Positions 10,450-25,616 are shown, counted from the stretch's first letter. The stretch: 31,111 nt of DNA from Candidatus Zipacnadia bacterium (GCA_029821515.1 JALGTD010000082.1:1-31111), one strand, 5' to 3'. Translations and numbers: made by a program. Notes: generated from the sequence alone by a model not told the origin.

Positions 10450-12824
10450 TTACTCAGCGGGCACAATCCGCACCTGTGCCCGCCGGCCCTGCAAATCAAA
10501 GCGCAGCCGGCCGGAATGATCTGCCTGCAGAATCTGACGCCAGGTCGCTTGAAACTCGTAATCAATTACGACCTGGTGATGAGAAAGAGGGGCGACCGGA
10601 TAGACGCCTGTTTCTACTGTTATACGCACCGGCGTGCTGGCGCCGTAGCTCAGTTGCCATCCCGTACTCCGACTGCCGCGCAGTTCAGCGCCCACTCCGG
10701 CAATCTCCAGTTCCACCAGGTCAGACTGATACTTGAGCAACACCGCCGAAGCCTCGTCGTAGTGGGGATTGATTATGATGGGACGGGCTACGGTAGAAGT
10801 CAGGTGCAGAGGCGGGACAGGCACTGTCACTATTACCCGCCCGCTACGTCGACCTGACGGCAAACGCTCATAAGCAGAAAACCGGCAGAAACCACCAGCG
10901 TAGAGGTGGTCATCTGCTTGAATGGCGCTGAACTCAACCCGGGTAGTGTAGCGGCCTGTATTCAGCAGATAACAGGAGTCACCACTTCCGCAAATCTCTA
11001 CATTGCCAACAAATAGTTCCGGCTGATGAAGCTCGTAGGCCGCCCGCCTGGCCCACAGGTCGTGGTGGAACGCTCCAAAGACGGGGTCGGTGGGTATCCA
11101 GTTAGCCCACAGGCGCGTTGTGGCGAACAGAGCCACCCCCAGCCCGTATTCGTTCAGCACAATTCCAGAATACATGTAACCGCTGCCCTCAGCGGGCAGG
11201 CGACGTCCCACCGCCCAGGGAACAGCATCGGGGGCAAGTGTGACGTAAGCTACCGGCCCACCAAAAGTGTAAGACCGGCGCTGAGCGGGAGTACCCTGTT
11301 TCAGATGCTCAGCGAGCCGGAAGCTACCCTGGCTTTGCAGAGGAGGTGGCAGCGAGGGAAAGTGCTCTGACCTAATGCCAAATGAGAAGTCTCCTATTTC
11401 TTCTTGCAGCAGCGGCATTTGTTCAATCCCGAACAGAAGCTGCAACTGGCCGGGCAAGCGCTGCCAGGAGCCGCTCTGACGCAATCGTATTCACAGAGCC
11501 TGCTGACAGCCTGCAGGGGCAGATCAAGCGCCAGTGGGGCAGCGATGAAGCTGTACTGCTGCAGATCCACCTCGGGATCTTCCAGCGCTGCAACAGTTAA
11601 ATAATCAACCAGTCCAAAGCGGCTGCCGCACCGAAAAACGTTGAACAGACCGTTAGGTTCACCCTCAGAGAAATCAGCAATGTAGCCGTAGACTGATAAA
11701 TCGCCGACTCGATACCCCTCAGCATACGGCTCATACAGGAAAGCTGCCACTGGCTTCGGTGTCACCGTAAAAATATGGCGGTTCAGAGCGGGGTGAATTA
11801 TTTGAGCCAGTTTACTGTCAGCCAACGCTGCGGGGCCCTCTTCATCATCTGGCCCTGGCAGCAAGCCGCTGGCGACCAGTCTACCATAGTTGTCCAGCCC
11901 GATACCCACCGCTCCGTGCAGAGCTGCCTGGTTGATCCAGCGCTGGAGCGCATCTTTGCTGTAGATTGGCTCGCCCGGCACCGGCACCCACAGCGCCCGC
12001 ACCACCTGGAAGCGCCCAGCCTGGCGTGCAATGTCTATGGCGTGGACGTTGTGGGCAAGCTTGTCAGGCTCCAGCACATCCGGCGCCATCGCCGGCATCA
12101 CGAAATCATAGCTATCAGGCACTGCGCTAAGCGAATAGTACAGACCAATGCGCCCGGCAAATAGCGGCGTGTCCGGATCCACGCTGCGCACTTGCTGCGC
12201 CCACAAAGATAGCACACCGGCAAGAGCCTGGTGCCGGTAGTCAGCCAGATCAATAGAGGGCCGCCCCACACCGAAAGGCTGCTCGTCATCCAGCGTGGTT
12301 GCCTCCTGGGTGGTGATCTGTGTCCAGTCGCCGAAGTTGCCACCCCATGCGGCATTCAACGCCTCCAGCAAGCCGTACTGCCGCTGAAGATATTGGCGGA
12401 AGCCCCGGTCAGTCTCCTGCAGCCGGGAGTCGAGGTAGTCACCAATGGCCCATCCGCCCACCGCTGGCTCATTTTTCAAGACTGATACTACCTGTTGGGC
12501 GGTCTTCCAGGCATACGCTGCCAAATCTGGATCGTCAGCAGCTATGGCTACCGGCCCTGGGGGAATGGTGGGAAGGGCCACAATCACCTTGAGGCCAGTC
12601 CGCTCGGCTGCAGCGATCTGACTGCGGATATCAGGTAGCCCGGAATCGTAGCGTGGGGGCACTTCCAGGTAGAGGGTATTTAGCCCAACGGCGCTGGCTA
12701 CTTGTGCAGCACCGTCGCCTTGCAGACCATAAACAAAAACAAAAGGGCCAGACTGCGCCCAGCTAAGCGCGCAACTGGCCAATATTGCTACCGTTGCCGC
12801 GATCAGTGTTGCTAATCTATTCAT
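10450..12824 (-). pseudogene. Secreted GH42 (beta-galactosidase)-fold protein split by a frameshift near 11490 (ORFs 11394-12824 and 10450-11484)
   Basis: Signal peptide MNRLATLIAATVAILASCALSWA; GH42-like YLQRQYGLLEALNAAWGGNF motif; trimerisation-domain-like segment. The first ORF ends in a spurious Cys-rich tail while the second frame opens at the same point. Confidence 0.65.
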
Positions 12825-12864
12825 TGCACGGTACGCCGGACCGTCTGCTTGAGAAGGCTGGACG

Positions 12865-13599
12865 CTATTCCGATCCGTTGGCCGCTGCTGGCAGCTCATC
12901 AGTCCACTCATCCTGAAACGCCAGAGCATCATGGGCGGCTGCCTGCTCAGCCTTCTGTTTGCTGCCACCGTGGCCTATGCCCAATACCCGGCCAGCCAAG
13001 CGCACCTCCACATCAAAAACCGGGTCGTGGTCAGGGCCAGCCCGCCCCGTAGTCACGTACTCAGGTACCAGTTGAGTCAACGACTGGCACAGCTCCTGGA
13101 GAGTGGTCTTGGCATCCCGGAAGCTCTCGTCCTCAACTCCATCAATGATATCAAGGAAATGAGCGACCACGAACTGGTGGGTCTGCTGGTAACCGCCGGA
13201 CAGATAGACAGCGCCCAGCAGTGCTTCCAGTGAATCAGCCAATACTGAGGTCTTGCGTCGCCCTCCGGTATTTTCCTCGCTCTGCCCCAGTTGCAGATAC
13301 GAGCCCAGCTTCAGTGACCGTGCCACATTGGCCAAATTAGCCGTCTGTACTACTGCTGATTTTGCTCGAGTTAGCCACCCTTCATCAGCTTGAGGAAACC
13401 GCTGATATAACTCCCCGGCAACTATAGCGTCCAGCACGGCATCGCCCAGGAATTCCAGGCGCTCATTTGACTCATAAGCGGCGCCGCCTCCCTCCCGGAC
13501 ATACGAAGCATGGGACAGTGCCTGTTTGAGTAGGTCAATATCCAGGTCAGTGATTTCCAGCTCATCAGCTAACTGCTGCCATCCGTCGTCACTGCACAT
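12865..13599 (-). CDS. rnc: Ribonuclease III
   Basis: NERLEFLGDAVL signature, ADSLEALLGA, C-terminal dsRBD (DAKTTLQE...GSKQKAEQAAA). Start set after the fabF stop. Confidence 0.96.
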   Translation of the reverse strand: MCSDDGWQQLADELEITDLDIDLLKQALSHASYVREGGGAAYESNERLEFLGDAVLDAIVAGELYQRFPQADEGWLTRAKSAVVQTANLANVARSLKLGSYLQLGQSEENTGGRRKTSVLADSLEALLGAVYLSGGYQQTHQFVVAHFLDIIDGVEDESFRDAKTTLQELCQSLTQLVPEYVTTGRAGPDHDPVFDVEVRLAGRVLGIGHGGSKQKAEQAAAHDALAFQDEWTDELPAAANGSE

Positions 13600-13630: not shown

Positions 13631-14869
13631 CTAGCCAAATCGGGAAACAATGAGAACCGCGTTGTGGCCGCCGAAGCCGAAGGAATTAGACATCGCCACG
13701 TCAACATTGGCTGTACGAGGCTCCCCCTGGACAATATCCAGATCCCGTGGGAGAGACCCATCCAGGTTATCACAGTTTAAGGTATGGGGAATCAGGCTAT
13801 CGCGCATCGCCAACATACAGGCTACCAATTCGGTAGCACTGGTCGCCCCCAGTTGGTGGGCGTGGATTGGTTTGGTGGACGATATAGGAACACTGTCTGC
13901 AAAAGTCGCCGCCAACGCATTAGCTTCCATAGCGTCGCCGTTGGGAGTGCCTGGGGCATGGGCGTTGACGTAATCAATGTCCGCCGGCTGCAGGCCAGCA
14001 TCGTCCAGAGCCGCCTCCATGGCCAGACAAGCACCAATGCCCTCCGGGTCGGGCGCTGTGATATGCCAGGCATCGGCACTGGCGCCATAACCCATCACCT
14101 CGCCCCAAATCGACGCGCCCCGGGCCTGAGCATGCTCCAGCTCCTCAAGTATGAGAATCGTGCTGCCCTCCCCAACCACAAAGCCATCCCGATCTCGGTC
14201 GAAGGGGCGACAGGACCGTTGCGGATCGTCATTGCGCGTGGACACGGCCTTAGCCGCAGCAAAGCCGGCCATAGCCGTAGGCGAGATGGTTGCCTCAGCG
14301 CCTCCCGTTATCATTATTTCTGCCGCGCCCCGCCTAATAGTGACAGTTGCCTCGCCAATGGCATGCCCAGCACTGGCGCAGGCGGTGGCGATGGCAGTAT
14401 TGGGGCCACGGGCGCCGGTCTGTATCGAAACCATACCCGCAGCCATGTCAATGATCATCTTGGGCACCAGGAACGGCGAGACACGGGAAGGGCCGCGGCT
14501 CAGCAGAATCTCATACTGCTCCTCCCAGGCACGCATCCCACCTATGCCCGACCCGATCAGCACGCCCACCCGATCGCGATTCTTCTCGGTTATCTCGAGC
14601 TGGGCGTCGGTCAGAGCCATATTAGTGGCCGCCAGCGCAAACTGCACGAAGCGATCACAGCGCTTAAGCAGCTTGCGATCAATCCAGTCGGTGGGGTCGA
14701 AGTCATTGACCTCACCAGCGATACGCACATCATACTGGCTTACATCAAACTGCGTGATCGGCCCGATACCCGATCGGCCCTCGCATACAGCCTGCCAGAA
14801 CTCGTCGGGCGAATTACCGACGGGCGTGATCATCCCTACACCAGTTATGACTACGCGTCTGTCACTCAT
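13631..14869 (-). CDS. fabF: 3-oxoacyl-ACP synthase II
   Basis: RVVITGVG, ATACAS (catalytic Cys), two catalytic His, SNSFGFGGHN. Confidence 0.95.
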   Translation of the reverse strand: MSDRRVVITGVGMITPVGNSPDEFWQAVCEGRSGIGPITQFDVSQYDVRIAGEVNDFDPTDWIDRKLLKRCDRFVQFALAATNMALTDAQLEITEKNRDRVGVLIGSGIGGMRAWEEQYEILLSRGPSRVSPFLVPKMIIDMAAGMVSIQTGARGPNTAIATACASAGHAIGEATVTIRRGAAEIMITGGAEATISPTAMAGFAAAKAVSTRNDDPQRSCRPFDRDRDGFVVGEGSTILILEELEHAQARGASIWGEVMGYGASADAWHITAPDPEGIGACLAMEAALDDAGLQPADIDYVNAHAPGTPNGDAMEANALAATFADSVPISSTKPIHAHQLGATSATELVACMLAMRDSLIPHTLNCDNLDGSLPRDLDIVQGEPRTANVDVAMSNSFGFGGHNAVLIVSRFG

Positions 14870-16028: not shown

Positions 16029-16955
16029 CTACGCTAACTTTGCCACCACTTCTTCAATGGCCTTCCCATCAGACGTGTCCATAGCCCCGACGGTATCGTC
16101 AATCTTGTCCAGCATCCTGGTCAGCACCCGCTTGGGACCGACTTCCACAAAAACCTCGACGCCCATCTCAATCATCCTGCGGACAGATTCCTCCCAGTGT
16201 ATGCTGTGGTTGATCTGCCGTGCCAATGCCCGCACAATTCCTGATGCATCACTGCGAGCGGTCGCATCCACATTAGAGACAATTGGCACGCGGGCATCAC
16301 TGATACCGGCTTGATGCAGATACTCACCGAATCGCTGCGCAGTACCGGTCATTAGCGGCGAATGAAACGCTCCACTGACCTTGAGCAATATACTGCCTTT
16401 TGCTCCCCGCTGCTTGGCAAGCTCACAAGCCTGCTGTACCGCCGATACTGCCCCGGAAACAACCACCTGGCCAGGACAGTTGTAATTAGCGACCACCAGC
16501 ACCTGGCCGCTGCCCGCCTCCTCTACTACCGCCTCAACCTTCTTCTTCTCCAGGCCAATTATAGCAGCCATCGTTCCGCCGACTCGCTGCCCGTCTTCCG
16601 CCATCAACTCTCCGCGATGTCGCACCAACCGCAAAGCATTTTCAAAGTCCAGCGCACCTGCGGCCACCAGTGCCGAGTATTCGCCCAAACTGTGGCCAGC
16701 TACCACGTCAGGCTGCAAGCCCTTCGCCTTGAGCACCCGCAGCACCGCTACACTGTGCGTAAGCAGGGCTGGCTGGGCCGCCTCAGTGGCCGTCAGCTCT
16801 TCTGCTGGCCCTTCCCTCATCAGCCGGGATAGCTCGATACCCAGCACTGCATCCGCCTGCTCAATTACCATCGCAGCGGCCGCATACTGCTCAGCCACAT
16901 CAGCTCCCATACCGACATATTGCGAACCCTGTCCTGGAAAGATAAAGGCAATCAT
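16029..16955 (-). CDS. fabD: Malonyl-CoA:ACP transacylase
   Basis: FPGQGSQ, GHSLGEY, VSGAFHS motifs. Confidence 0.97.
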   Translation of the reverse strand: MIAFIFPGQGSQYVGMGADVAEQYAAAAMVIEQADAVLGIELSRLMREGPAEELTATEAAQPALLTHSVAVLRVLKAKGLQPDVVAGHSLGEYSALVAAGALDFENALRLVRHRGELMAEDGQRVGGTMAAIIGLEKKKVEAVVEEAGSGQVLVVANYNCPGQVVVSGAVSAVQQACELAKQRGAKGSILLKVSGAFHSPLMTGTAQRFGEYLHQAGISDARVPIVSNVDATARSDASGIVRALARQINHSIHWEESVRRMIEMGVEVFVEVGPKRVLTRMLDKIDDTVGAMDTSDGKAIEEVVAKLA

Positions 16956-16971: not shown

Positions 16972-18050
16972 CTATCCGCTCCCTAACTCTTCCCGGGCAA
17001 TCTCAGTCAACGCCGGCACGACCTCAAACACATCGCCAACGATGCCGTAGTGAGCAACTTCAAAAATGGGAGCAGCAGGATCCGTATTGATAGCCACAAT
17101 ACAATCCGCCCCGGACATACCCGCCAGGTGCTGGACCGCTCCTGATATGCCACAGGCGATATAGAGCCGGGGCTGGACGGTGCTGCCAGTTTGGCCGACC
17201 TGGTGGTAGGGAGCTATCCAGCCGTCATCCACCGTCGGGCGCGAAGCTCCCACCACTCCGCCCAGAGCATCAGCTAACTCTCTGATAATAGCGAAATTCT
17301 CCGGCTTCTTCAGCCCCCGGCCACCGGAAACGATGATCTCCGCGTCCTGAAGATTCACCTGCCCCGCAGCTTCATCGCGGGCAATATCAATAATCTTCGT
17401 CATTATTGAATTCTCATCAAAGCTTACGGGAACTTCAACTATTTCCGCAGTATGTTCCGGCGGTGATTCCAGCCGCTGCATAACCCGCGGGCGTACCGTC
17501 GCCATCTGCGGGCGGTGGTTACGCGTAACAATGCGCGCCATAATATTGCCGCCGAAGGCCGGTCGCGTCTGCACCAGCAGGTGCTCTTCGGGGTCAATCT
17601 CCAGACCGGTACAGTCAGCGGTCAGGCCAGTTTTGATGCGAGTGGCTATGGCTCCTCGGCATAAAACACCCGATCTGGTCCAGACTGCGCTGCTTTCTGA
17701 GCAAGCTCACCCGCTTTATCACCCAGGACAACCAGACTCAGCTCGGTATCCAGGTTCTCAGCCAGCTCGCGACCCTTGCCCAACAACTCCCAGGTCACGC
17801 CCGCCAGCCCATCTTCGCCAACTTCGCCGATTACCCACACGCCCTGGTAATCACTGGTATCCACCTCTTCAATAGCGGGAACTTCCCAGATAATAGCACC
17901 AACCGGGCAGACACTCACACACCCGCCACACAGCGTGCATGCCTCGGTGATGGTCGCCAGCCCTTCGGCCATCTCGATCGCGCCGTACGGACAAGCCTTT
18001 ATGCAAAGTTGACAGCCGGTACATTTTTCTGCGTCAACATGGATATTCAT
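16972..18050 (-). pseudogene. etfA: Electron transfer flavoprotein alpha subunit with N-terminal 2x[4Fe-4S] ferredoxin domain; split by an apparent deletion/frameshift at about 17650
   Basis: CTGCQLCIKACP and CTLCGGCVSVCP, then the EtfA N-domain up to YAEEP*. The other frame resumes [16 protein letters not shown]...QTRPAFGGN and includes the FAD motif GASRPTVD...QVGQTG...[12 protein letters not shown]. Confidence 0.9.
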
Positions 18051-18084
18051 TTTGCGTCTTTATCTGCTAAATTCAGCAGGCCAC

Positions 18085-18821
18085 TTAGAGCAATTGTGCC
18101 TCACGCAGCTTGTCAAGAAGCTCGAACGCTGGGGCGGGAATATTTCTACTACCGTGGTCGGCGAGCCAGACAGTCCGCATTTTTCGGGATCAGCTTGGAT
18201 ATCCTCCAGTGTCCAGGTAGGTATCTCTTTTTTGCGGGCTGCCATAACCCCGCGCAGCCCGGCGTGCCGGGGAACATTCATATGTTTGTCAGCAGTAATC
18301 AGAGCCGGCAGCTTCATTTCAATAGTCTCAAAACTGCCAGCCAGCAGGCGCTTGACCTGCATCTTCTTCCCGTCTACTTTCACTTCCATTGCGTAGGTAG
18401 CCTGGGGAATGCCCAACTGCTCGGCAATGCCCGGGCCGACCTGAGCGGTGTCTCCATCAAAAGCCTGCTTACCACAGATAACCAGATCGTAGCCGCCAAT
18501 CTTCTGTATCGCCTCCGCCAGGACATAAGAGGTCGCCAGCGTGTCGCTGCCGGCAAGGGCCCGGTCACTGATGAGAACAGCGTCATCGCAGCCCATAGCC
18601 AGTGCCTGGCGGAGAGCCTCTTCGGCCTGCGGCGGGCCCATGCTGAGGGCGGTAACCGTCCCGCCATATTCTTCCTTAAGCTGTAGGGCAGCCTCAATAG
18701 CATTCTCATCATAGGGATTGATAATGCTGGGAACGCCCTCACGCACCAGCGTATTGGTCTCGGGGTCAATGCTGATCTCGCTGGTATCCGGAACCTGTTT
18801 AATGCAGACTATTATGTTCAT
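18085..18821 (-). CDS. etfB: Electron transfer flavoprotein beta subunit; C-terminal frameshift near 18130 (ORF track end 18060, likely native stop 18085)
   Basis: VCIKQVPD, NPYDENAIEAAL, ALAGSDTLAT, GKQAFDGDTAQVGP, GLSGSPT. An alternative frame gives the typical tail AFELLDKLREAQLL*. Confidence 0.92.
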
Positions 18822-18831
18822 ACAACTGCTC

Positions 18832-19539
18832 CTATTTCTCTGCTCTTATCCCAGTAATTGCTGTAGCTATCCCCCACTTGAGAACCTTCCACTGCAACTG
18901 TTCAAAACCAACAGTTTCGAGCATCGTCGTCAACTGCTGAGGTGACAGAAACTCTGCTGTAGACTGGGCCAGGTAGCGATAGGCATCCCCACGCCCGGTT
19001 AGTATTCCTCCGATAACTGGCACAAAATGCCGCCGAAACAGTTCGACCGGCCACGAAGCGCCGCCGCCGCACATTTCTAGAACCAGTATCCAGCCCCCTG
19101 GGCGCAACACGCGCGCCATCTCCTGCAAGCCGGCCTGCAAATCTACAAAGTTGCGTATAGCAAATGCTGCCATTACTCCATCAAATTGTCCCGTTCGCCA
19201 CGGAAGCTGCATGGCGTCACAACGTACCAACCTTACCCGGCTGCTGTTAGCCTGCTTCCATTGAGCCCGCTGCAGCATTGACTCGCTAAAATCAGCGGCC
19301 AGCAATCTGCTGGTGTCCGGATGCTCCCCACTGCCGGCTCCCACATCCAAGACTATCCTTGACCGAGCCGGTGGAACTAGCGCCGCCGCTTCGCGCCGCC
19401 AGGCCCGATCATTATCCAAGGTCAACAGCCGATTCAGCAGATCGTAGCGAGGAGCGATCTCGCCGAACATACGGCAAATTGTTTCTCGCTTCGGCTTCAT
19501 ACGACTCTGACGCAGCCCGGCCCGGGCAGATTGCTTCAC
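18832..19539 (-). CDS. MenG/UbiE-family SAM-dependent methyltransferase (short in-frame gap after motif I)
   Basis: MFGEIAPRYDLLNRLL...WRR, VLDVGAGSGE, DFSESML, DAMQLPW, FAIRNF, EMARVLRPGG, AYRYLAQS. Confidence 0.85.
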   Translation of the reverse strand: MKQSARAGLRQSRMKPKRETICRMFGEIAPRYDLLNRLLTLDNDRAWRREAAALVPPARSRIVLDVGAGSGEHPDTSRLLAADFSESMLQRAQWKQANSSRVRLVRCDAMQLPWRTGQFDGVMAAFAIRNFVDLQAGLQEMARVLRPGGWILVLEMCGGGASWPVELFRRHFVPVIGGILTGRGDAYRYLAQSTAEFLSPQQLTTMLETVGFEQLQWKVLKWGIATAITGIRAEK

Positions 19540-19566
19540 CCTCCGTTCTCTCTACCTTTACACAGC

Positions 19567-20661
19567 CTACTTCCCCTCAACGATATCAAACAGCTTGGCC
19601 TCGCGGTAGTAGCGCTCTACCGGATAGTCCTTGGTATACCCGTAGCCGCCGTGAATCTGCACTGCCTTGCTGCAGACCTCCACGCACATCTCCGAGGCGA
19701 ATACCTTGGCCATAGCCGCCTCTTTCTCGAACTCCAAACCCTGGTCCTTGCGCCAGGCCGCACTGTAAGTCAGCCAGCGGGCCGCCTCAATGCTGGTGGC
19801 CATATCCGCCAGCATGAACTGAACTGCCTGGAACTCGCTAATCGGCTGTCCAAACTGCTCGCGGGTAGGCGCATAGGCAATCGCTGCATCATAAGCTGCT
19901 TGAGCCAGACCGACTGCGCCGATGGCCATGCCAACGCGCCCGGCTCCCAGCGTGGTCATCGCTACCCGAAAGCCTCGTCGCTCGCGGCCCAGCACATTCT
20001 CCTTAGGCACGCGAGCATCCTGGAAGATTAGTTCACGATTGGACAGGGCGGGATAGGCCATCTTCTCTTCATCCTTGCCAAAAGTGAAACCCTCCGTGCC
20101 CTTTTCCACGATGAAAGCTGTCATCCCCCGCGCTCCTCTTTCCGGAGCAACGTTGGCGATGATCACGTATATCTCAGCATCACCGCCATTGGTGATGAAT
20201 ACCTTGGTGCCATTCAGGATATAATGATCACCGTCCAGCTCGGCGCGGGTCCGCACGCTGGCGGCATCTGAGCCGGCTCCCGGCTCAGTCAGGCCGAATG
20301 CTCCGATCTTTTCCCCGCTAGCCAGCGGCCGGAGATACTTCTCTTTCTGCTCTTCGCTACCAAACTCCATAATGGGATATTCAGCCAGCAGATGAGCGCC
20401 GTACACCGCACCAGTTGTGGTGCAAGCTGCCGAAAGCAGCTCACCAACGACCGCCCAGTCCAGAATTCCCAGCCCCAGCCCGCCGTACTGCTCAGGCACT
20501 GGCACACCGAACAGATCCAACTCGGCCAGCATCTTTATGTTATCCCAGGGGTACTCCCCACGCTGGTCAACTTCCTTAGCTTTGGGTTTAAGCTCCTCCT
20601 CGCAGATTCCTCTGACCGCCGCGAAGATCTCCTGCTGTTCGTCAGTAAATGAGAAATCCAT
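19567..20661 (-). CDS. Acyl-CoA dehydrogenase family protein (Bcd/CarC-like); last helix appears missing
   Basis: [39 protein letters not shown]; ends abruptly at DIVEGK*. RBS GAGGAAGG before ATG 20661. Confidence 0.93.
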
Positions 20662-21768: not shown

Positions 21769-22773
21769 TCAGCTCGCTTCGGCCACCAGTTGCCTGCAGG
21801 CCTGCTGGAGGTGTTTGACAACTCCGCCTTCTACAGCACGGTGGGCTACCCCGATCGCGCTGGCGATAGCTCTCCCATCGGACCGACCATGACTGACAAC
21901 GGTGATGCCCCGGACCCCCAGCAGTGGAGCACCGCCATAGTTGGCGTAATCGTATCGCTGGCGCAAGCTGCCCAACTTGCTGCTCAATAACAGGCGAGCG
22001 ATCCTGGCACTCAAGCCATCACATAAGCAATTGTGTAGGTCATCCATCAGGAACTGGGCCATCGCTTCGGCGGTCTTCAGAGCCACATTGCCTACAAAGC
22101 CGTCAGCCACCGCGACATCAGCCTGGCCATTAAAGATGCCGTCAGCTTCGATGTTGCCGACAAAGTTAATGGGCATCTGCGCCAGCATACCAAAGGCTGC
22201 CGCAGTCAAACTGTTGCCTTTTGACGATTCTGCGCCGATGTTCAGCAGGCCAACCCTGGGACTTTCAATGCCCAGAGCGCTCTCGGCGTAGACACTACCC
22301 ATCAGGCCAAACTGCGCCAGATGAATCGGCTGACAGTCCACGTTGGCCCCACCATCAATAATTACTCCCGCACCACGCTGCGATATCATAGGCGCGGCGA
22401 TGCCTGGACGCCGCAGACCCTCTATAACACCCAGTCGGGTGTGAGCCAAAGTCAGCAATGCCCCGGAATTGCCCGCCGAGACCACGGCCTGGGCTTCTTG
22501 ATTCCGTACCATATCAACGGCCACAAACATGGAGGCATCCTGACTTCGCAGCGCACCTCGTGTCGGATCAGCCTCCATCTCAATGACGTCATTAGCCGCC
22601 ACAATCCGGAGGTTGGCGGGCCGCTGAGCGGAGTCAGGCAGGTACTTTTCGATTTCCGCAGGCCGACCCACAAGGGCAATTTGCACCGGCAACTGCTCCG
22701 CGCTGCGCAGCGCCCCCCTGACCGCTGCTTGCGGGGCAAAATCTCCACCCATGGCGTCAACAGCAATAACCAT
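21769..22773 (-). CDS. plsX: Phosphate acyltransferase PlsX
   Basis: IAVDAMGGDFAP, VSAGNSGA, DGGANVD, DGFVGNVALK, YGGAPLLG, SHGRS. Start set at ATG 22773 with GGAGAGG. Confidence 0.97.
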   Translation of the reverse strand: MVIAVDAMGGDFAPQAAVRGALRSAEQLPVQIALVGRPAEIEKYLPDSAQRPANLRIVAANDVIEMEADPTRGALRSQDASMFVAVDMVRNQEAQAVVSAGNSGALLTLAHTRLGVIEGLRRPGIAAPMISQRGAGVIIDGGANVDCQPIHLAQFGLMGSVYAESALGIESPRVGLLNIGAESSKGNSLTAAAFGMLAQMPINFVGNIEADGIFNGQADVAVADGFVGNVALKTAEAMAQFLMDDLHNCLCDGLSARIARLLLSSKLGSLRQRYDYANYGGAPLLGVRGITVVSHGRSDGRAIASAIGVAHRAVEGGVVKHLQQACRQLVAEAS

Positions 22774-22805
22774 AAGCCTCTCCCAGAGCCTCGGAGTAAC
22801 GGTCC

Positions 22806-23024: not shown

Positions 23025-23055
23025 AACTAAACTGCGTGGGCATCTCCCCACGCAG
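23025..23055 (-). terminator. Terminator-like hairpin between yceD and rpmF
   Basis: Perfect 9-bp stem CTGCGTGGG/CCCACGCAG, 6-nt loop, then TTTAGTT. Confidence 0.5.
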
Positions 23056-23087: not shown

Positions 23088-23606
23088 CTACTGGTGGTGC
23101 AGTTCCAGCAGTGGCGCCAGACGGGAATCTACCTGCTGGCGCTGGCAGTCACAGTCACCCTCGTTGAGATTCTGCCCGCATACCGGGCACAGGCCCCGAC
23201 AGTCAGGTCGGCAAAGCCAACGCCAGGGCGTGTTGAGCATCGCGAGCTGCCGGACAAGTTCAGACAAATCTATCTTACTCCCACTGCGTAGGGAGATAAG
23301 CTCACTTCGCTCCTCCTCAGCGGTAACCGAGTCATACCGTTCAACAGCTTCCAGCGAGCACACCTCGTCAATTTCAATCTCTATGGGCACCCAGTGCTTG
23401 GTCAGACACCGGCTGCACGTCAGTTCAACAGTAGTGCTTACAAAGCCGAACGCCTCGACTTTGCCTCCCGCGTTAATCAGAGTGACTTGACCTTTAACCG
23501 GACCATATAATGCTTCGCTTGCTTCAACCGCAACTTCAGCATCAACTACACAAGTAAGTTCAACTCCTGGCTTCTGCAATTCATCGAGAATGTCGTATTG
23601 CATCAT
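23088..23606 (-). CDS. yceD: YceD/DUF177 family protein
   Basis: CSRCL and LCRPDCRGLCPVCGQNLNEGDCDC...DSRLAPL; canonical position before rpmF. Confidence 0.93.
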   Translation of the reverse strand: MMQYDILDELQKPGVELTCVVDAEVAVEASEALYGPVKGQVTLINAGGKVEAFGFVSTTVELTCSRCLTKHWVPIEIEIDEVCSLEAVERYDSVTAEEERSELISLRSGSKIDLSELVRQLAMLNTPWRWLCRPDCRGLCPVCGQNLNEGDCDCQRQQVDSRLAPLLELHHQ

Positions 23607-23652: not shown

Positions 23653-23681
23653 AGTATAGCCCGTTAGGGGGCGATTGTCAA
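23653..23681 (-). promoter_or_regulatory. Sigma-70 promoter of the yceD-rpmF-plsX-fab operon
   Basis: TTGACA-N17-TATACT; the -35 lies in the last codons of the upstream gene. Confidence 0.88.
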
Positions 23682-25616
23682 GAATTCATCCAGGCCCTGG
23701 GCCCGCCAGAGCAACACTCGCTGGCCAATCTGCCAGGGCCCGGCCAAGGCCACCGGCCCCCCATTTACCGAGCGAGCTGTAACCTCGTCATTGAGCATGT
23801 CCTCCTGGACCTGCCAGGAGGTCTCATTGTCCTCGTAACTTATCGTGTGCAGCAGCATATGCTTGTACTCAAGCTCGGATTTGCTCTTGGGCTTGTGTTC
23901 AGTCAGAACACCCTTGAAAGGATCAGTAGGCTCGGGCAGTAGTTCCTTAGTACGCTCAACACTCTGCCGTAGTCGTGCGCGGGCAAAGTTAGCAGCAAAA
24001 TCCACCAACGAATCGAAGCTGCTGGCCGGCGCCACTTTCACCACTACTCCGGCCCGCAGATTATTCAGCGGTTGGCGCAGCCGGTAGCTACGCTTACGGG
24101 CATAGATTGTCAACTGTAGTTCAGCGGTATCACCCTGGTCAGTCCACTCCAGAACTGCTGGCTTAGGCCCCGAGACAATGGCTCTACCCTCTGCCGGTCC
24201 CGCCCGCAAAGCCCGTATTCCTACATAGCACCCGGCTCTCTCTACTGCTACGGTGCCCATCGCCGGTATCGCGGTCGGCAGTCCGTTCCACTCGCCTCCG
24301 CCTACAATCACTCGATCTATCTGTGAACGCGGGCCCAGCACTCCGCGCAGCCAGGCGCTCAGGCGGTTGCCCTGCCCAATTACGTCGAAGTCAACTGTGA
24401 TCATACCTACATTATTGACCTGCACACTGGTGACGTAGCTGGGCCACGGATCAGTAAAAAAATAGGCGGTAGGTCGCTCGGGGCAATCAGCGAAAGTGAC
24501 CATCAACGGTATACTGGTGTTACTGGGCCGACCGGTCATTGTGCCCAGACTGAAGCGATCATACATATATGTGTCTGTGCGGACAATATATGCCTCACCG
24601 CGCGCTTCAGTTGAGATTTGCGCCGGTAGTTGCTGGCCGGCTACTGCCAGCAGGTCGCCGGATGGCGCGTAGTCGGGAGCCACAAAAAACATCGCAAATG
24701 GCGACATCATCTGTGGCCGCGGGCCGCCCAGATCAACATAAATCAGGTACGGGCTGTACTGCCCGCCATACAGATAATCCCCAGGCTCAGCGTACAACGC
24801 TGCCCCCGCCAGCGCACCTGAGTTGGCCTGCACGCGCCAGGCCAGATCCTGATACATCAGTACCAGGGCATCGCGAAGTTGGTCGCTGCGCATTTCGGTA
24901 CCGGCCGCCTGCCAGATCCATTTCAGCGCCGCCAGTCGGTAGCTATCCGAGCTGGGGCTGTGCCCATCACCGAGGCCTTTATCAAGCGTCTCCCCCAGCC
25001 AGGTTGCAACTTCCTTCAGGCTTTCTGTAATCTGCTGGTCGGCACCCAGCGCTCGCCCCACCATCGCCAGGCTGGCCGCCCGCAGCAGGCCCGTGACATC
25101 GTCTTCGGAGGGAGCTGGCTTACCTCGCACCGCCGCAAGTGCTAACTCCAAGCCACTGTGCAACTGTGCACTCAACTCCGATGAAAGCTTTTCGGCATGC
25201 TTGATGTAAACCTGGGCAAGTACCGGACTGGCAAAGTAAGTCGCCTGGAGGCTGGGAGCCTGCCCCTGGCCAGCCAGCCAGGGGAACTGGCCCTCTGTCG
25301 CCGAGCCTGGCTGGGTATCCTGGGCAGCCAGAACTGCTTTTAGTACCTGCTGGGCTTGTGCAATATTGGTGTCGCTCTCACAAGCTGCCAGAACATAGCC
25401 AGGGCTTTCCGTCGCTACACTGGGCAGGCCCGCCTGATTCAGTAGCAGGCCAGTGGCCTCATCAATTTGGGGGCGGTACTGCTCGGATGAGCTGAGCCAG
25501 CCGACCAGATCGCGATATTGCTGCTCGTGCTTGCTTGCCTCCGCTGTCATCGCACCCGTTAACAAGCACACTACCAACACCAGACGCCCAATTGAGCAAT
25601 CAGAAAGCCAGGCCAT
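23664..25616 (-). CDS. Secreted hypothetical protein, 650 aa (helical N-domain, beta-rich C-domain)
   Basis: Long ORF with a probable signal peptide and GAGGAAG RBS; no family motif recognised with certainty. Confidence 0.8.
   Translation of the reverse strand: MAWLSDCSIGRLVLVVCLLTGAMTAEASKHEQQYRDLVGWLSSSEQYRPQIDEATGLLLNQAGLPSVATESPGYVLAACESDTNIAQAQQVLKAVLAAQDTQPGSATEGQFPWLAGQGQAPSLQATYFASPVLAQVYIKHAEKLSSELSAQLHSGLELALAAVRGKPAPSEDDVTGLLRAASLAMVGRALGADQQITESLKEVATWLGETLDKGLGDGHSPSSDSYRLAALKWIWQAAGTEMRSDQLRDALVLMYQDLAWRVQANSGALAGAALYAEPGDYLYGGQYSPYLIYVDLGGPRPQMMSPFAMFFVAPDYAPSGDLLAVAGQQLPAQISTEARGEAYIVRTDTYMYDRFSLGTMTGRPSNTSIPLMVTFADCPERPTAYFFTDPWPSYVTSVQVNNVGMITVDFDVIGQGNRLSAWLRGVLGPRSQIDRVIVGGGEWNGLPTAIPAMGTVAVERAGCYVGIRALRAGPAEGRAIVSGPKPAVLEWTDQGDTAELQLTIYARKRSYRLRQPLNNLRAGVVVKVAPASSFDSLVDFAANFARARLRQSVERTKELLPEPTDPFKGVLTEHKPKSKSELEYKHMLLHTISYEDNETSWQVQEDMLNDEVTARSVNGGPVALAGPWQIGQRVLLWRAQGLDEFLTIAP

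Follow-up and report, generated by a model that had tools for sequence, protein, structure and literature searches.

Bacteria are known to carry out the enoyl reduction step of type II fatty acid synthesis (FAS-II) in four ways, with FabI, FabL, FabV or FabK, enzymes that are unrelated or related only distantly. This step, in which an enoyl group bound to acyl carrier protein (ACP) is reduced, is a classic antibacterial target. Here, a stretch of 31,111 nt from Candidatus Zipacnadia bacterium (GCA_029821515.1, JALGTD010000082.1:1-31111) was analysed, hereafter called the window. It is one whole contig of a metagenome-assembled genome (MAG) of 1.97 Mb in 304 contigs, which is 81% complete. Inside its FAS-II operon lies a cassette that encodes an acyl-CoA dehydrogenase (ACAD) and both subunits of an electron-transfer flavoprotein (Etf), EtfB and an EtfA with a ferredoxin (Fd) domain. 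The initial annotation, made from the sequence of the window, had proposed the cassette as a candidate electron-bifurcating enoyl-ACP reductase (ENR). Based on comparative genomics throughout, we favour the view that ACAD-EtfB-(ferredoxin-domain)EtfA may be an Etf-dependent ENR of FAS-II in this order of anaerobic sediment Armatimonadota, with a probability of roughly 0.55; that it uses ACP thioesters, works as a reductase and is coupled to ferredoxin is inferred.

Comparison with described systems

Judged by sequence similarity, the closest known systems are CarCDE of Acetobacterium woodii (PDB 6FAH) and Bcd-EtfAB of Clostridioides difficile (5OL2) and Acidaminococcus fermentans (4L1F/4KPU). 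For the protein comparisons, an intact ortholog from the same genus (P0001; locus L063) was used. All three domains of the ACAD fold are present in this ortholog, as is the catalytic Glu of the xEGT motif. It is nearest to C. difficile Bcd (5OL2_C, 418 bits), followed by A. fermentans Bcd and CarC (336 bits). Like CarCDE, the cassette combines an ACAD-fold reductase with an EtfB (258 bits to CarD) and an EtfA with an N-terminal 2x[4Fe-4S] domain, as in CarE. The match between EtfA and CarE runs over the full length (residues 3-391, 408 bits), the ferredoxin domain included. EtfB is nearest to CarD and to the EtfB proteins of C. difficile and A. fermentans (243-258 bits), compared to 123 bits for human ETF-beta, and contains the motif DGDTAQVG, which we take to be a feature of bifurcating-type EtfB, the group with a second FAD and an NADH site instead of AMP. 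By homology, the Etf is assigned to the bifurcating CarDE type. Unlike CarCDE, the cassette has a dehydrogenase closer to Bcd than to CarC and stands in a FAS-II operon instead of a caffeate-respiration operon, in genomes that show no pathway feeding it CoA esters.

With Bcd-EtfAB, the cassette shares a dehydrogenase of about 53% identity, the catalytic Glu in xEGT and an EtfB with a bifurcating-type FAD region. It differs in that its ACAD falls in a separate, strongly supported clade, with KM[AG][YFW]xxLxNREL where Bcd has KMGIRGSxTxEL, [IL]VEG where Bcd has IYEG, and no fixed residue at the position of the Asp in TLDxGR of Bcd. The genes thl, hbd and crt do not adjoin the cassette, and its EtfA has the ferredoxin domain that the EtfA of Bcd complexes lacks. 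In a search against a representative library, no relative exceeded 54% identity.

The known ENRs resemble the cassette in the proposed reaction and in the position in a fab cluster. However, FabI, FabL and FabV are short-chain dehydrogenases/reductases (SDRs) and FabK is an FMN-binding TIM barrel, while the cofactors of the cassette would be FAD and an Etf with Fe-S clusters, possibly reducing ferredoxin. Searches with Pfam and NCBIfam found no homology of the ACAD to FabI, FabL, FabV or FabK, only the ACAD fold. Membership in the ACAD families acting on carrier proteins was not found either, with 58 bits for the acyl-ACP dehydrogenase MbtN (cut-off 700) and 252 bits for the prolyl-PCP dehydrogenase (cut-off 650). 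A co-fold of the ACAD dimer (intact ortholog from genome G006) with the ACP of the operon gave a score of 0.07 (mark 0.34), which counts neither way. Another comparison is offered by FabX of Helicobacter pylori, reportedly a flavoenzyme that dehydrogenates acyl-ACP in FAS-II. Like the proposed enzyme, this acyl-ACP dehydrogenase/isomerase uses a flavin and a [4Fe-4S] cluster and works on ACP thioesters within FAS-II. Unlike it, FabX has a FabK-like fold, acts oxidatively for unsaturated fatty acids and has neither an ACAD fold nor an Etf.

A second ferredoxin-domain EtfA paralog, 49% identical, is encoded on contig C92 of genome G000, followed by a FixC-like FAD-dependent oxidoreductase (L118:70-1365 and 2123-2959). 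The contig begins inside this unit, and a FixABCX-type Etf system is probably present in G000 as well, judging from these genes.

A review of the enoyl reductases of bacteria, from 2022, covers FabI, FabK, FabL, FabL2, FabV and FabI2, and acyl-CoA dehydrogenase, electron transfer and ferredoxin are unmentioned there. No description of an ACAD/Etf-type ENR was found in this review or in full-text literature searches, in line with the initial annotation, which knew of no described FAS-II system of this kind.

Conservation of the cassette and census of known reductases

An ortholog of the ACAD was found in 37 of 41 relatives and in 24/24 relatives of high quality. Contig ends permitting, the order yceD-plsX-fabH-ACAD-etfB-etfA-fabD-fabG-acpP-fabF is kept in all 20 order-level loci, representing six of seven families and 16 genera, so that the cassette stands between fabH and fabD in each of them. 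Among the matches listed, an Armatimonadota MAG at NCBI has the same order through etfA, where its contig ends. The source names of close homologs are Armatimonadota, near Ca. Zipacnadales, and related sequence was found in runs of marine-sediment and vent origin. The MAG survey of Carlton et al. (2023), in which lipids are not discussed, is consistent with this sediment/vent setting of the lineage. By dN/dS, the cassette genes are the most constrained ones in the operon (0.06-0.14 vs 0.11-0.18).

The census of known ENRs comprised 36 genomes of the order, 34 of them of high quality. FabK (TIGR03151) exceeded the cut-off in 0/36 genomes, the best score being 144 bits, and FabL (NF005975) was equally missing from all 36, with nothing above 215 bits against a cut-off of 328. 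FabI (NF005717), for which E. coli FabI with 293 bits served as a yardstick, was found only in three genomes of family f5 (272-292 bits), while the remaining genomes scored 107 bits or less. FabV (NF010177, PF12241) had no match in the order, nor in 14 control genomes, making this the weakest of the four censuses. Among the 34 high-quality genomes, this amounts to three with FabI and none with FabK, FabL or FabV, leaving 31 with none of the four families. The same picture was obtained for the MAG itself. One SDR of the MAG, C7, was considered as a hidden ENR and rejected. It scores 107 bits for FabI and 197 bits for FabL, both far under the cut-offs, and is unlinked to lipid genes, its neighbours being an MlrC peptidase, a xylose-isomerase-like protein and an aminotransferase.

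Partner genes of a CoA pathway are scarce as well. Crotonase (ECH_1) occurs in one of the 36 order genomes and is missing from 33 of the 34 high-quality ones. In the five genomes of family f1, to which the window belongs (92-95% complete), no Thiolase_C was found (0/5), no crotonase, with borderline MaoC matches in 2/5, and no true 3-hydroxyacyl-CoA dehydrogenase (Hbd), the 3HCDH model giving generic Rossmann matches of 30 bits or less. No source of enoyl-CoA for a Bcd-type enzyme was visible in a search that was not exhaustive for other enoyl-CoA routes, and FabZ is the sole producer of enoyl thioesters in evidence. We regard this lack of a visible CoA pathway as the strongest new argument for an ACP-linked role.

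Phylogeny and distribution of the dehydrogenase

Within a sample of 201 Armatimonadota genomes, the ACAD matches form two tiers. The upper tier (61-94% identity) consists of the order of the window together with families f8, f9, f31 and f42. In these four families, the ACAD-etfB-Fd-etfA trio stands alone among unrelated genes, away from fab, with orthologs of 64-72% identity, and the fab operons read plsX-fabH-fabD-fabG-acpP-fabF. Neither crt, hbd nor thl adjoins the stand-alone ACAD orthologs. FabI is likewise missing from most of these sister lineages. A maximum-likelihood tree unites the in-operon and stand-alone ACADs in one distinct clade (100/100, with a long stem of 0.56) that is separate from the Bcd-like relatives. 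Within it, a branch with 98/98 support sets the in-operon ACADs apart, consistent with the cassette having moved once, at the root of the order. Fixed motifs of the clade are KM[AG][YFW]xxLxNREL and [IL]VEGTSEIQ, with a variable TLxxGR, and the ACADs of the lower tier and from outside keep the canonical Bcd motifs. The change from IYEG to IVEG was tried as a marker of ACP use and rejected: VEG is found in 120/120 close homologs, yet a VEG-type ACAD elsewhere is accompanied by thiolase and Hbd. Two further VEG-type ACADs have uninformative gene contexts.

The clade is present in 27 of the 201 genomes. A FabI-like match was found in four of these (three strong, one weak) and a FabK-like match in none (0/27). 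Among the 174 genomes without the clade, 132 have a FabI-like match and 10 more a FabK-like one only. Clade and FabI are thus strongly complementary in their distribution.

In sister orders of the same class (G135, G222 and G101), a divergent FabG-like SDR is encoded between fabD and fabG (L114:6804-7544, L113:8992-10380, L115:8888-9511). In G222, this SDR and fabG appear to be fused as one open frame of 462 aa.

Proposed function and alternative explanations

The ENR reading is favoured because the operon position is kept, the Etf is of the bifurcating type, known ENRs are missing in most genomes of the order and the CoA partners are missing. In the mechanism we propose, by analogy with Bcd-EtfAB and CarCDE, NADH would reduce the beta-FAD of EtfB. 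One electron would then pass to the alpha-FAD of EtfA and on to the FAD of the dehydrogenase, two rounds being needed to reduce the trans-2-enoyl-ACP from FabZ. The other, low-potential electron would travel over the two [4Fe-4S] clusters in the N-terminal domain of EtfA to ferredoxin. That NADH-driven enoyl-ACP reduction through ACAD/Etf would in this way produce reduced ferredoxin in each elongation cycle is a more tentative proposal, and we regard it as plausible but less likely than not. The description of the site as the usual fabK slot in the initial annotation should be read as an analogy, not as a test.

Several observations weigh against an ENR. With a bona fide crotonyl-CoA reductase, the dehydrogenase shares 53% identity, and the replacement of Y by V next to the catalytic Glu has no diagnostic value. 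Since sister lineages carry the orthologous cassette elsewhere than in their fab operons, membership in the operon reflects one relocation event and not many, and the complementary distribution likewise involves few independent evolutionary events, since kin are not independent. The anticorrelation with fabI/fabK that the initial annotation had named as a check is seen in the phylum sample, but family f5 and genome G127 carry FabI besides the cassette. Each genome of the order has 8-30 SDRs, any of which could be a cryptic ENR, and the extra FabG-like SDR in the fab operons of the sister orders is a possible SDR-type ENR or second ketoreductase. About 32 of the 201 phylum genomes have none of FabI, FabK and this ACAD clade, suggesting that there are unrecognised ENRs in the phylum or that the models miss some. 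All three core genes are, moreover, damaged in this window. The candidate bifurcating ENR of the initial annotation therefore keeps the support of synteny, the ENR census and the Etf type, but has against it the off-operon copies of sister lineages, FabI in f5, a methyltransferase that is not part of the core and the damaged copies.

An ordinary bifurcating butyryl- or acyl-CoA dehydrogenase-Etf working on CoA thioesters could have entered the fab operon by transposition when the order arose, the real ENR being an unrecognised SDR or medium-chain dehydrogenase/reductase. We consider this unlikely, though it is the main rival. Of the characterised proteins, Bcd (5OL2_C, 418 bits) and CarCDE come closest, orthologs of 64-72% identity stand outside fab operons in sister lineages, and public annotations label the ACAD butyryl-CoA dehydrogenase. 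Similar genes were read likewise by Matheus Carnevali et al. (2019), who reported Bcd beside EtfAB in Margulisbacteria, Saganbacteria and Melainabacteria and interpreted the pair as Bcd/EtfAB. Other Armatimonadota lineages have neither a recognisable ENR nor this clade, and the extra FabG-like SDR of the sister-order operons also fits. However, a CoA-specific enzyme would have no known substrate route that we could find, with crotonase missing in 35/36 order genomes and thiolase and true Hbd in the five f1 genomes. A CoA-specific role also sits poorly with an operon position kept in six of seven families and 16 genera at very low dN/dS, with the location of the best SDR candidate, C7, among peptidase, sugar and aminotransferase genes, and with stand-alone copies that are not beside crt, hbd or thl. 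The cassette might also supply butyryl- or branched acyl-CoA primers to FabH, the alternative considered in the initial annotation. The adjoining fabH and the short-chain, Bcd-like ancestry of the ACAD speak for it, but this idea is disfavoured because there is no crotonase (missing in 35/36), thiolase or true Hbd (both missing in the f1 genomes) to make crotonyl-CoA. Oxidation of branched acyl-CoAs would, furthermore, destroy primers and not make them, and where sister lineages have the orthologs standing alone, fabH is not nearby, so we regard primer supply as highly improbable.

The reaction might instead run in the oxidative direction, the ACAD being an acyl-ACP dehydrogenase that makes trans-2-enoyl-ACP for anaerobic unsaturated fatty acids, as FabX does, or that delivers electrons from lipid turnover to the Etf. 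ACADs normally oxidise, FabX is already reported as a FAS-II flavoenzyme that dehydrogenates acyl-ACP, and the operon position suits an ACP-linked substrate equally well. Nevertheless, oxidation would leave the ENR step unfilled in 31 of the 34 high-quality genomes, and the known settings of bifurcating-type Etfs are enoyl-CoA reduction and the oxidation of lactate. No partner isomerase was seen in the operon, where no search was aimed at analogues of FabA, FabM or FabN. An oxidative role thus appears improbable to us, and the Etf-dependent ENR is retained as the preferred reading.

Organisation of the operon

Based on Pfam and NCBIfam, the operon on the minus strand of the window reads yceD-rpmF-plsX-fabH-[ACAD, MenG-like MT, etfB, Fd-etfA]-fabD-fabG-acpP-fabF-rnc, where MT is a methyltransferase. 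The initial annotation had given the order from plsX to rnc correctly, and yceD and rpmF are added upstream. It had also estimated gaps of about 10-40 nt, and the measured intergenic spacing is 9-40 nt. The following features were assigned:

23653..23681, minus strand: sigma-70-like promoter candidate, TTGACA-17-TATACT, upstream of yceD; 11/12 consensus positions, a consensus match only
23088..23606, minus strand: yceD (DUF177), first gene of the operon; Pfam YceD 90 bits
22806..23003, minus strand: rpmF (ribosomal protein L32), a 65-aa ORF, MAVPKKKTSKSRRNKRR..., presumably L32
21769..22773, minus strand: plsX; TIGR00182 335 bits
20702..21712, minus strand: fabH; TIGR00747 395 bits, over cut-off
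19567..20661, minus strand: Bcd-like acyl-CoA dehydrogenase (ACAD) of an Armatimonadota-specific clade, from Pfam/NCBIfam and the tree; C-terminus truncated here
18832..19539, minus strand: UbiE/MenG-family S-adenosylmethionine (SAM) methyltransferase (MT); TIGR01934 169 bits (cut-off 158)
18060..18821, minus strand: etfB, putatively of the bifurcating type, GKQAFDGDTAQVG, from Pfam/NCBIfam; C-terminus frameshifted here
17646..18050, minus strand: 5' piece of etfA, with the 2x[4Fe-4S] ferredoxin domain and the start of ETF domain I, ending in TAG
16972..17649, minus strand: 3' piece of etfA in another frame, with the remainder of domain I and the FAD-binding ETF_alpha domain
16029..16955, minus strand: fabD; TIGR00128 336 bits
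15272..16021, minus strand: fabG; TIGR01830 338 bits
14967..15206, minus strand: acpP; DSLD phosphopantetheine site seen in a 94%-identical ortholog
13631..14869, minus strand: fabF; TIGR03150 574 bits
12865..13629, minus strand: rnc (RNase III), downstream of fabF

The strong promoter claimed at 23653-23681 is matched by a site, but its strength is to be read as a consensus match only. No convincing terminator bounding the cassette was found in the window, as had been noted before. The absence of fabI, fabK, fabL, fabV and fabZ from the window was likewise borne out by Pfam and NCBIfam scans of its proteins, and fabZ is located on another contig of the same MAG. The start of plsX was placed near 22773-22788, as the 416-aa ORF over-extends across rpmF, the domain begins at residue 83 and relatives align over 22773/22788-21772. 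Between yceD and rpmF (23032-23055) a GC-rich hairpin of 9 pairs with a weak T tail was observed, maybe an attenuator or processing site. Directly upstream of the promoter region (23664-25616) lies a 650-aa ORF without a Pfam match, which has 55-58% identity to counterparts in the same-genus genomes G001 and G005. The remaining genes of the window are housekeeping genes, namely pheS (phenylalanyl-tRNA synthetase alpha subunit, 581-1603), glycosyltransferases, uvrA, rpsI, rplM, truA, rpoA and rpsD.

Methyltransferase and other inserted genes

The initial annotation had treated the methyltransferase as part of an ACAD-MT-etfB-etfA unit. This is not supported, as only four genomes of one genus carry it (G000, G001, G002 and G007). 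Within this genus, G005 and G006 lack it, as do all the other genera examined, and in these ACAD is directly followed by etfB. The MT copies are 52-79% identical, versus 86-94% for the flanking genes, and a paralog of 31% identity is present elsewhere in G006 and G007. Read depth over MT is near zero in related populations, the gene being present in some and absent from most. Its score is above the family cut-off (TIGR01934, 169 vs 158 bits), while every equivalog model stays below its own cut-off. From this pattern, MT is best described as a recent accessory insertion at the genus level, outside the core unit.

Other passengers were observed in the operons of relatives. In G012 and G013, ACAD and etfB are separated by a DUF4268 gene. 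One genus (G013) has a GNAT acetyltransferase at the junction of etfA and fabD, and conserved ORFs are present in G015 and G010 (passenger loci, listed jointly: L074:8680-9609 and 11731-12147, L064:7905-8366, L071:12955-13767). A class-I SAM methyltransferase is found between acpP and fabF in G025, and the fab operons of G008 and G027 have a tandem acpP pair (L065:12400-12929, L070:13058-13643).

Condition of the cassette in this assembly

Relative to same-genus genomes, each core gene of the cassette has one private deletion in the window. In ACAD, 57 nt are deleted at about 19573, removing the last ~19 residues (TSEIQRLVIANRLL...), the C-terminal helix after the xEGT motif. The truncated protein ends in IVEGK*, where relatives have ...IVEGTSEIQRLVIANRLLKEA... 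In etfB, a 46-nt deletion at about 18124 leads to a C-terminal frameshift. In etfA, a 121-nt deletion at about 17653 takes some 41 residues out of domain I, leaving the gene in two parts. Fd-etfA, counted as a single gene in the initial annotation, thus appears in this assembly as the two pieces 17646-18050 and 16972-17649, while EtfA is intact in relatives (399-402 aa).

A further lesion was observed in a glycoside-hydrolase-like gene (10450-12968; about 826 aa in G001 and G005), which is split at about 11487 by a frameshift with about 13 residues missing. It resembles the three cassette lesions in size and kind. The 3.7 kb of the cassette contain 3 lesions, and the remaining ~27 kb of the window contain 1.

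The three deletions are probably artefacts of assembly or consensus in a strain-variable region. This is suggested because the remaining codons are under strong purifying selection (dN/dS of 0.06-0.14 for ACAD, etfB and etfA vs 0.11-0.18 for fabD, fabG and fabF), no second copy was found, contigs of the same genus break here, MT is patchy and a similar lesion is present at 11487. Logan contigs from four related sediment metagenomes, which are fragmented and mixed, show that relatives carry the TSEIQRLVI segment beyond 19574, most of them without MT. Public sequencing runs were also checked for the deletions. At most 17% of the sequence words are present in any one run, so the sample behind this MAG is not among these runs.

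Alternatively, and compatibly with any functional reading, the cassette in this window could be a decaying pseudogene cluster. One private deletion of 46-121 nt per core gene, two of them causing frameshifts, and the concentration of lesions (3 in 3.7 kb vs 1 in ~27 kb) are in favour of decay. However, dN/dS is as low as in intact relatives, so decay would have to be very recent, and the assembly, which is 81% complete, yielded neither a second copy of ACAD or its cognate Etf nor an ENR that could substitute. Contig breaks inside the cassette in four of seven same-genus assemblies, together with the presence or absence of MT among co-occurring populations, fit a region that is hard to assemble, and the comparable frameshifting deletion at about 11487 affects an unrelated gene. 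Genuine decay is therefore conceivable but not what we expect.

Significance

If the ENR reading is true, the ACAD/Etf reductase would add a fifth class of ENR, distinct in its mechanism, and would explain how lipids are made where no ENR can be recognised in the genome. Genes for butyryl-CoA dehydrogenase/EtfAB from uncultured anaerobes, now routinely taken as a sign of butyrate metabolism, would then need rereading. If the enzyme is also bifurcating, about seven ferredoxin-reduction events would take place per palmitate, and lipid synthesis would return low-potential reducing power instead of only consuming NAD(P)H. An anabolic pathway would in that case recover energy in the form of reduced ferredoxin, which would be relevant to life at the energy limit in sediments.

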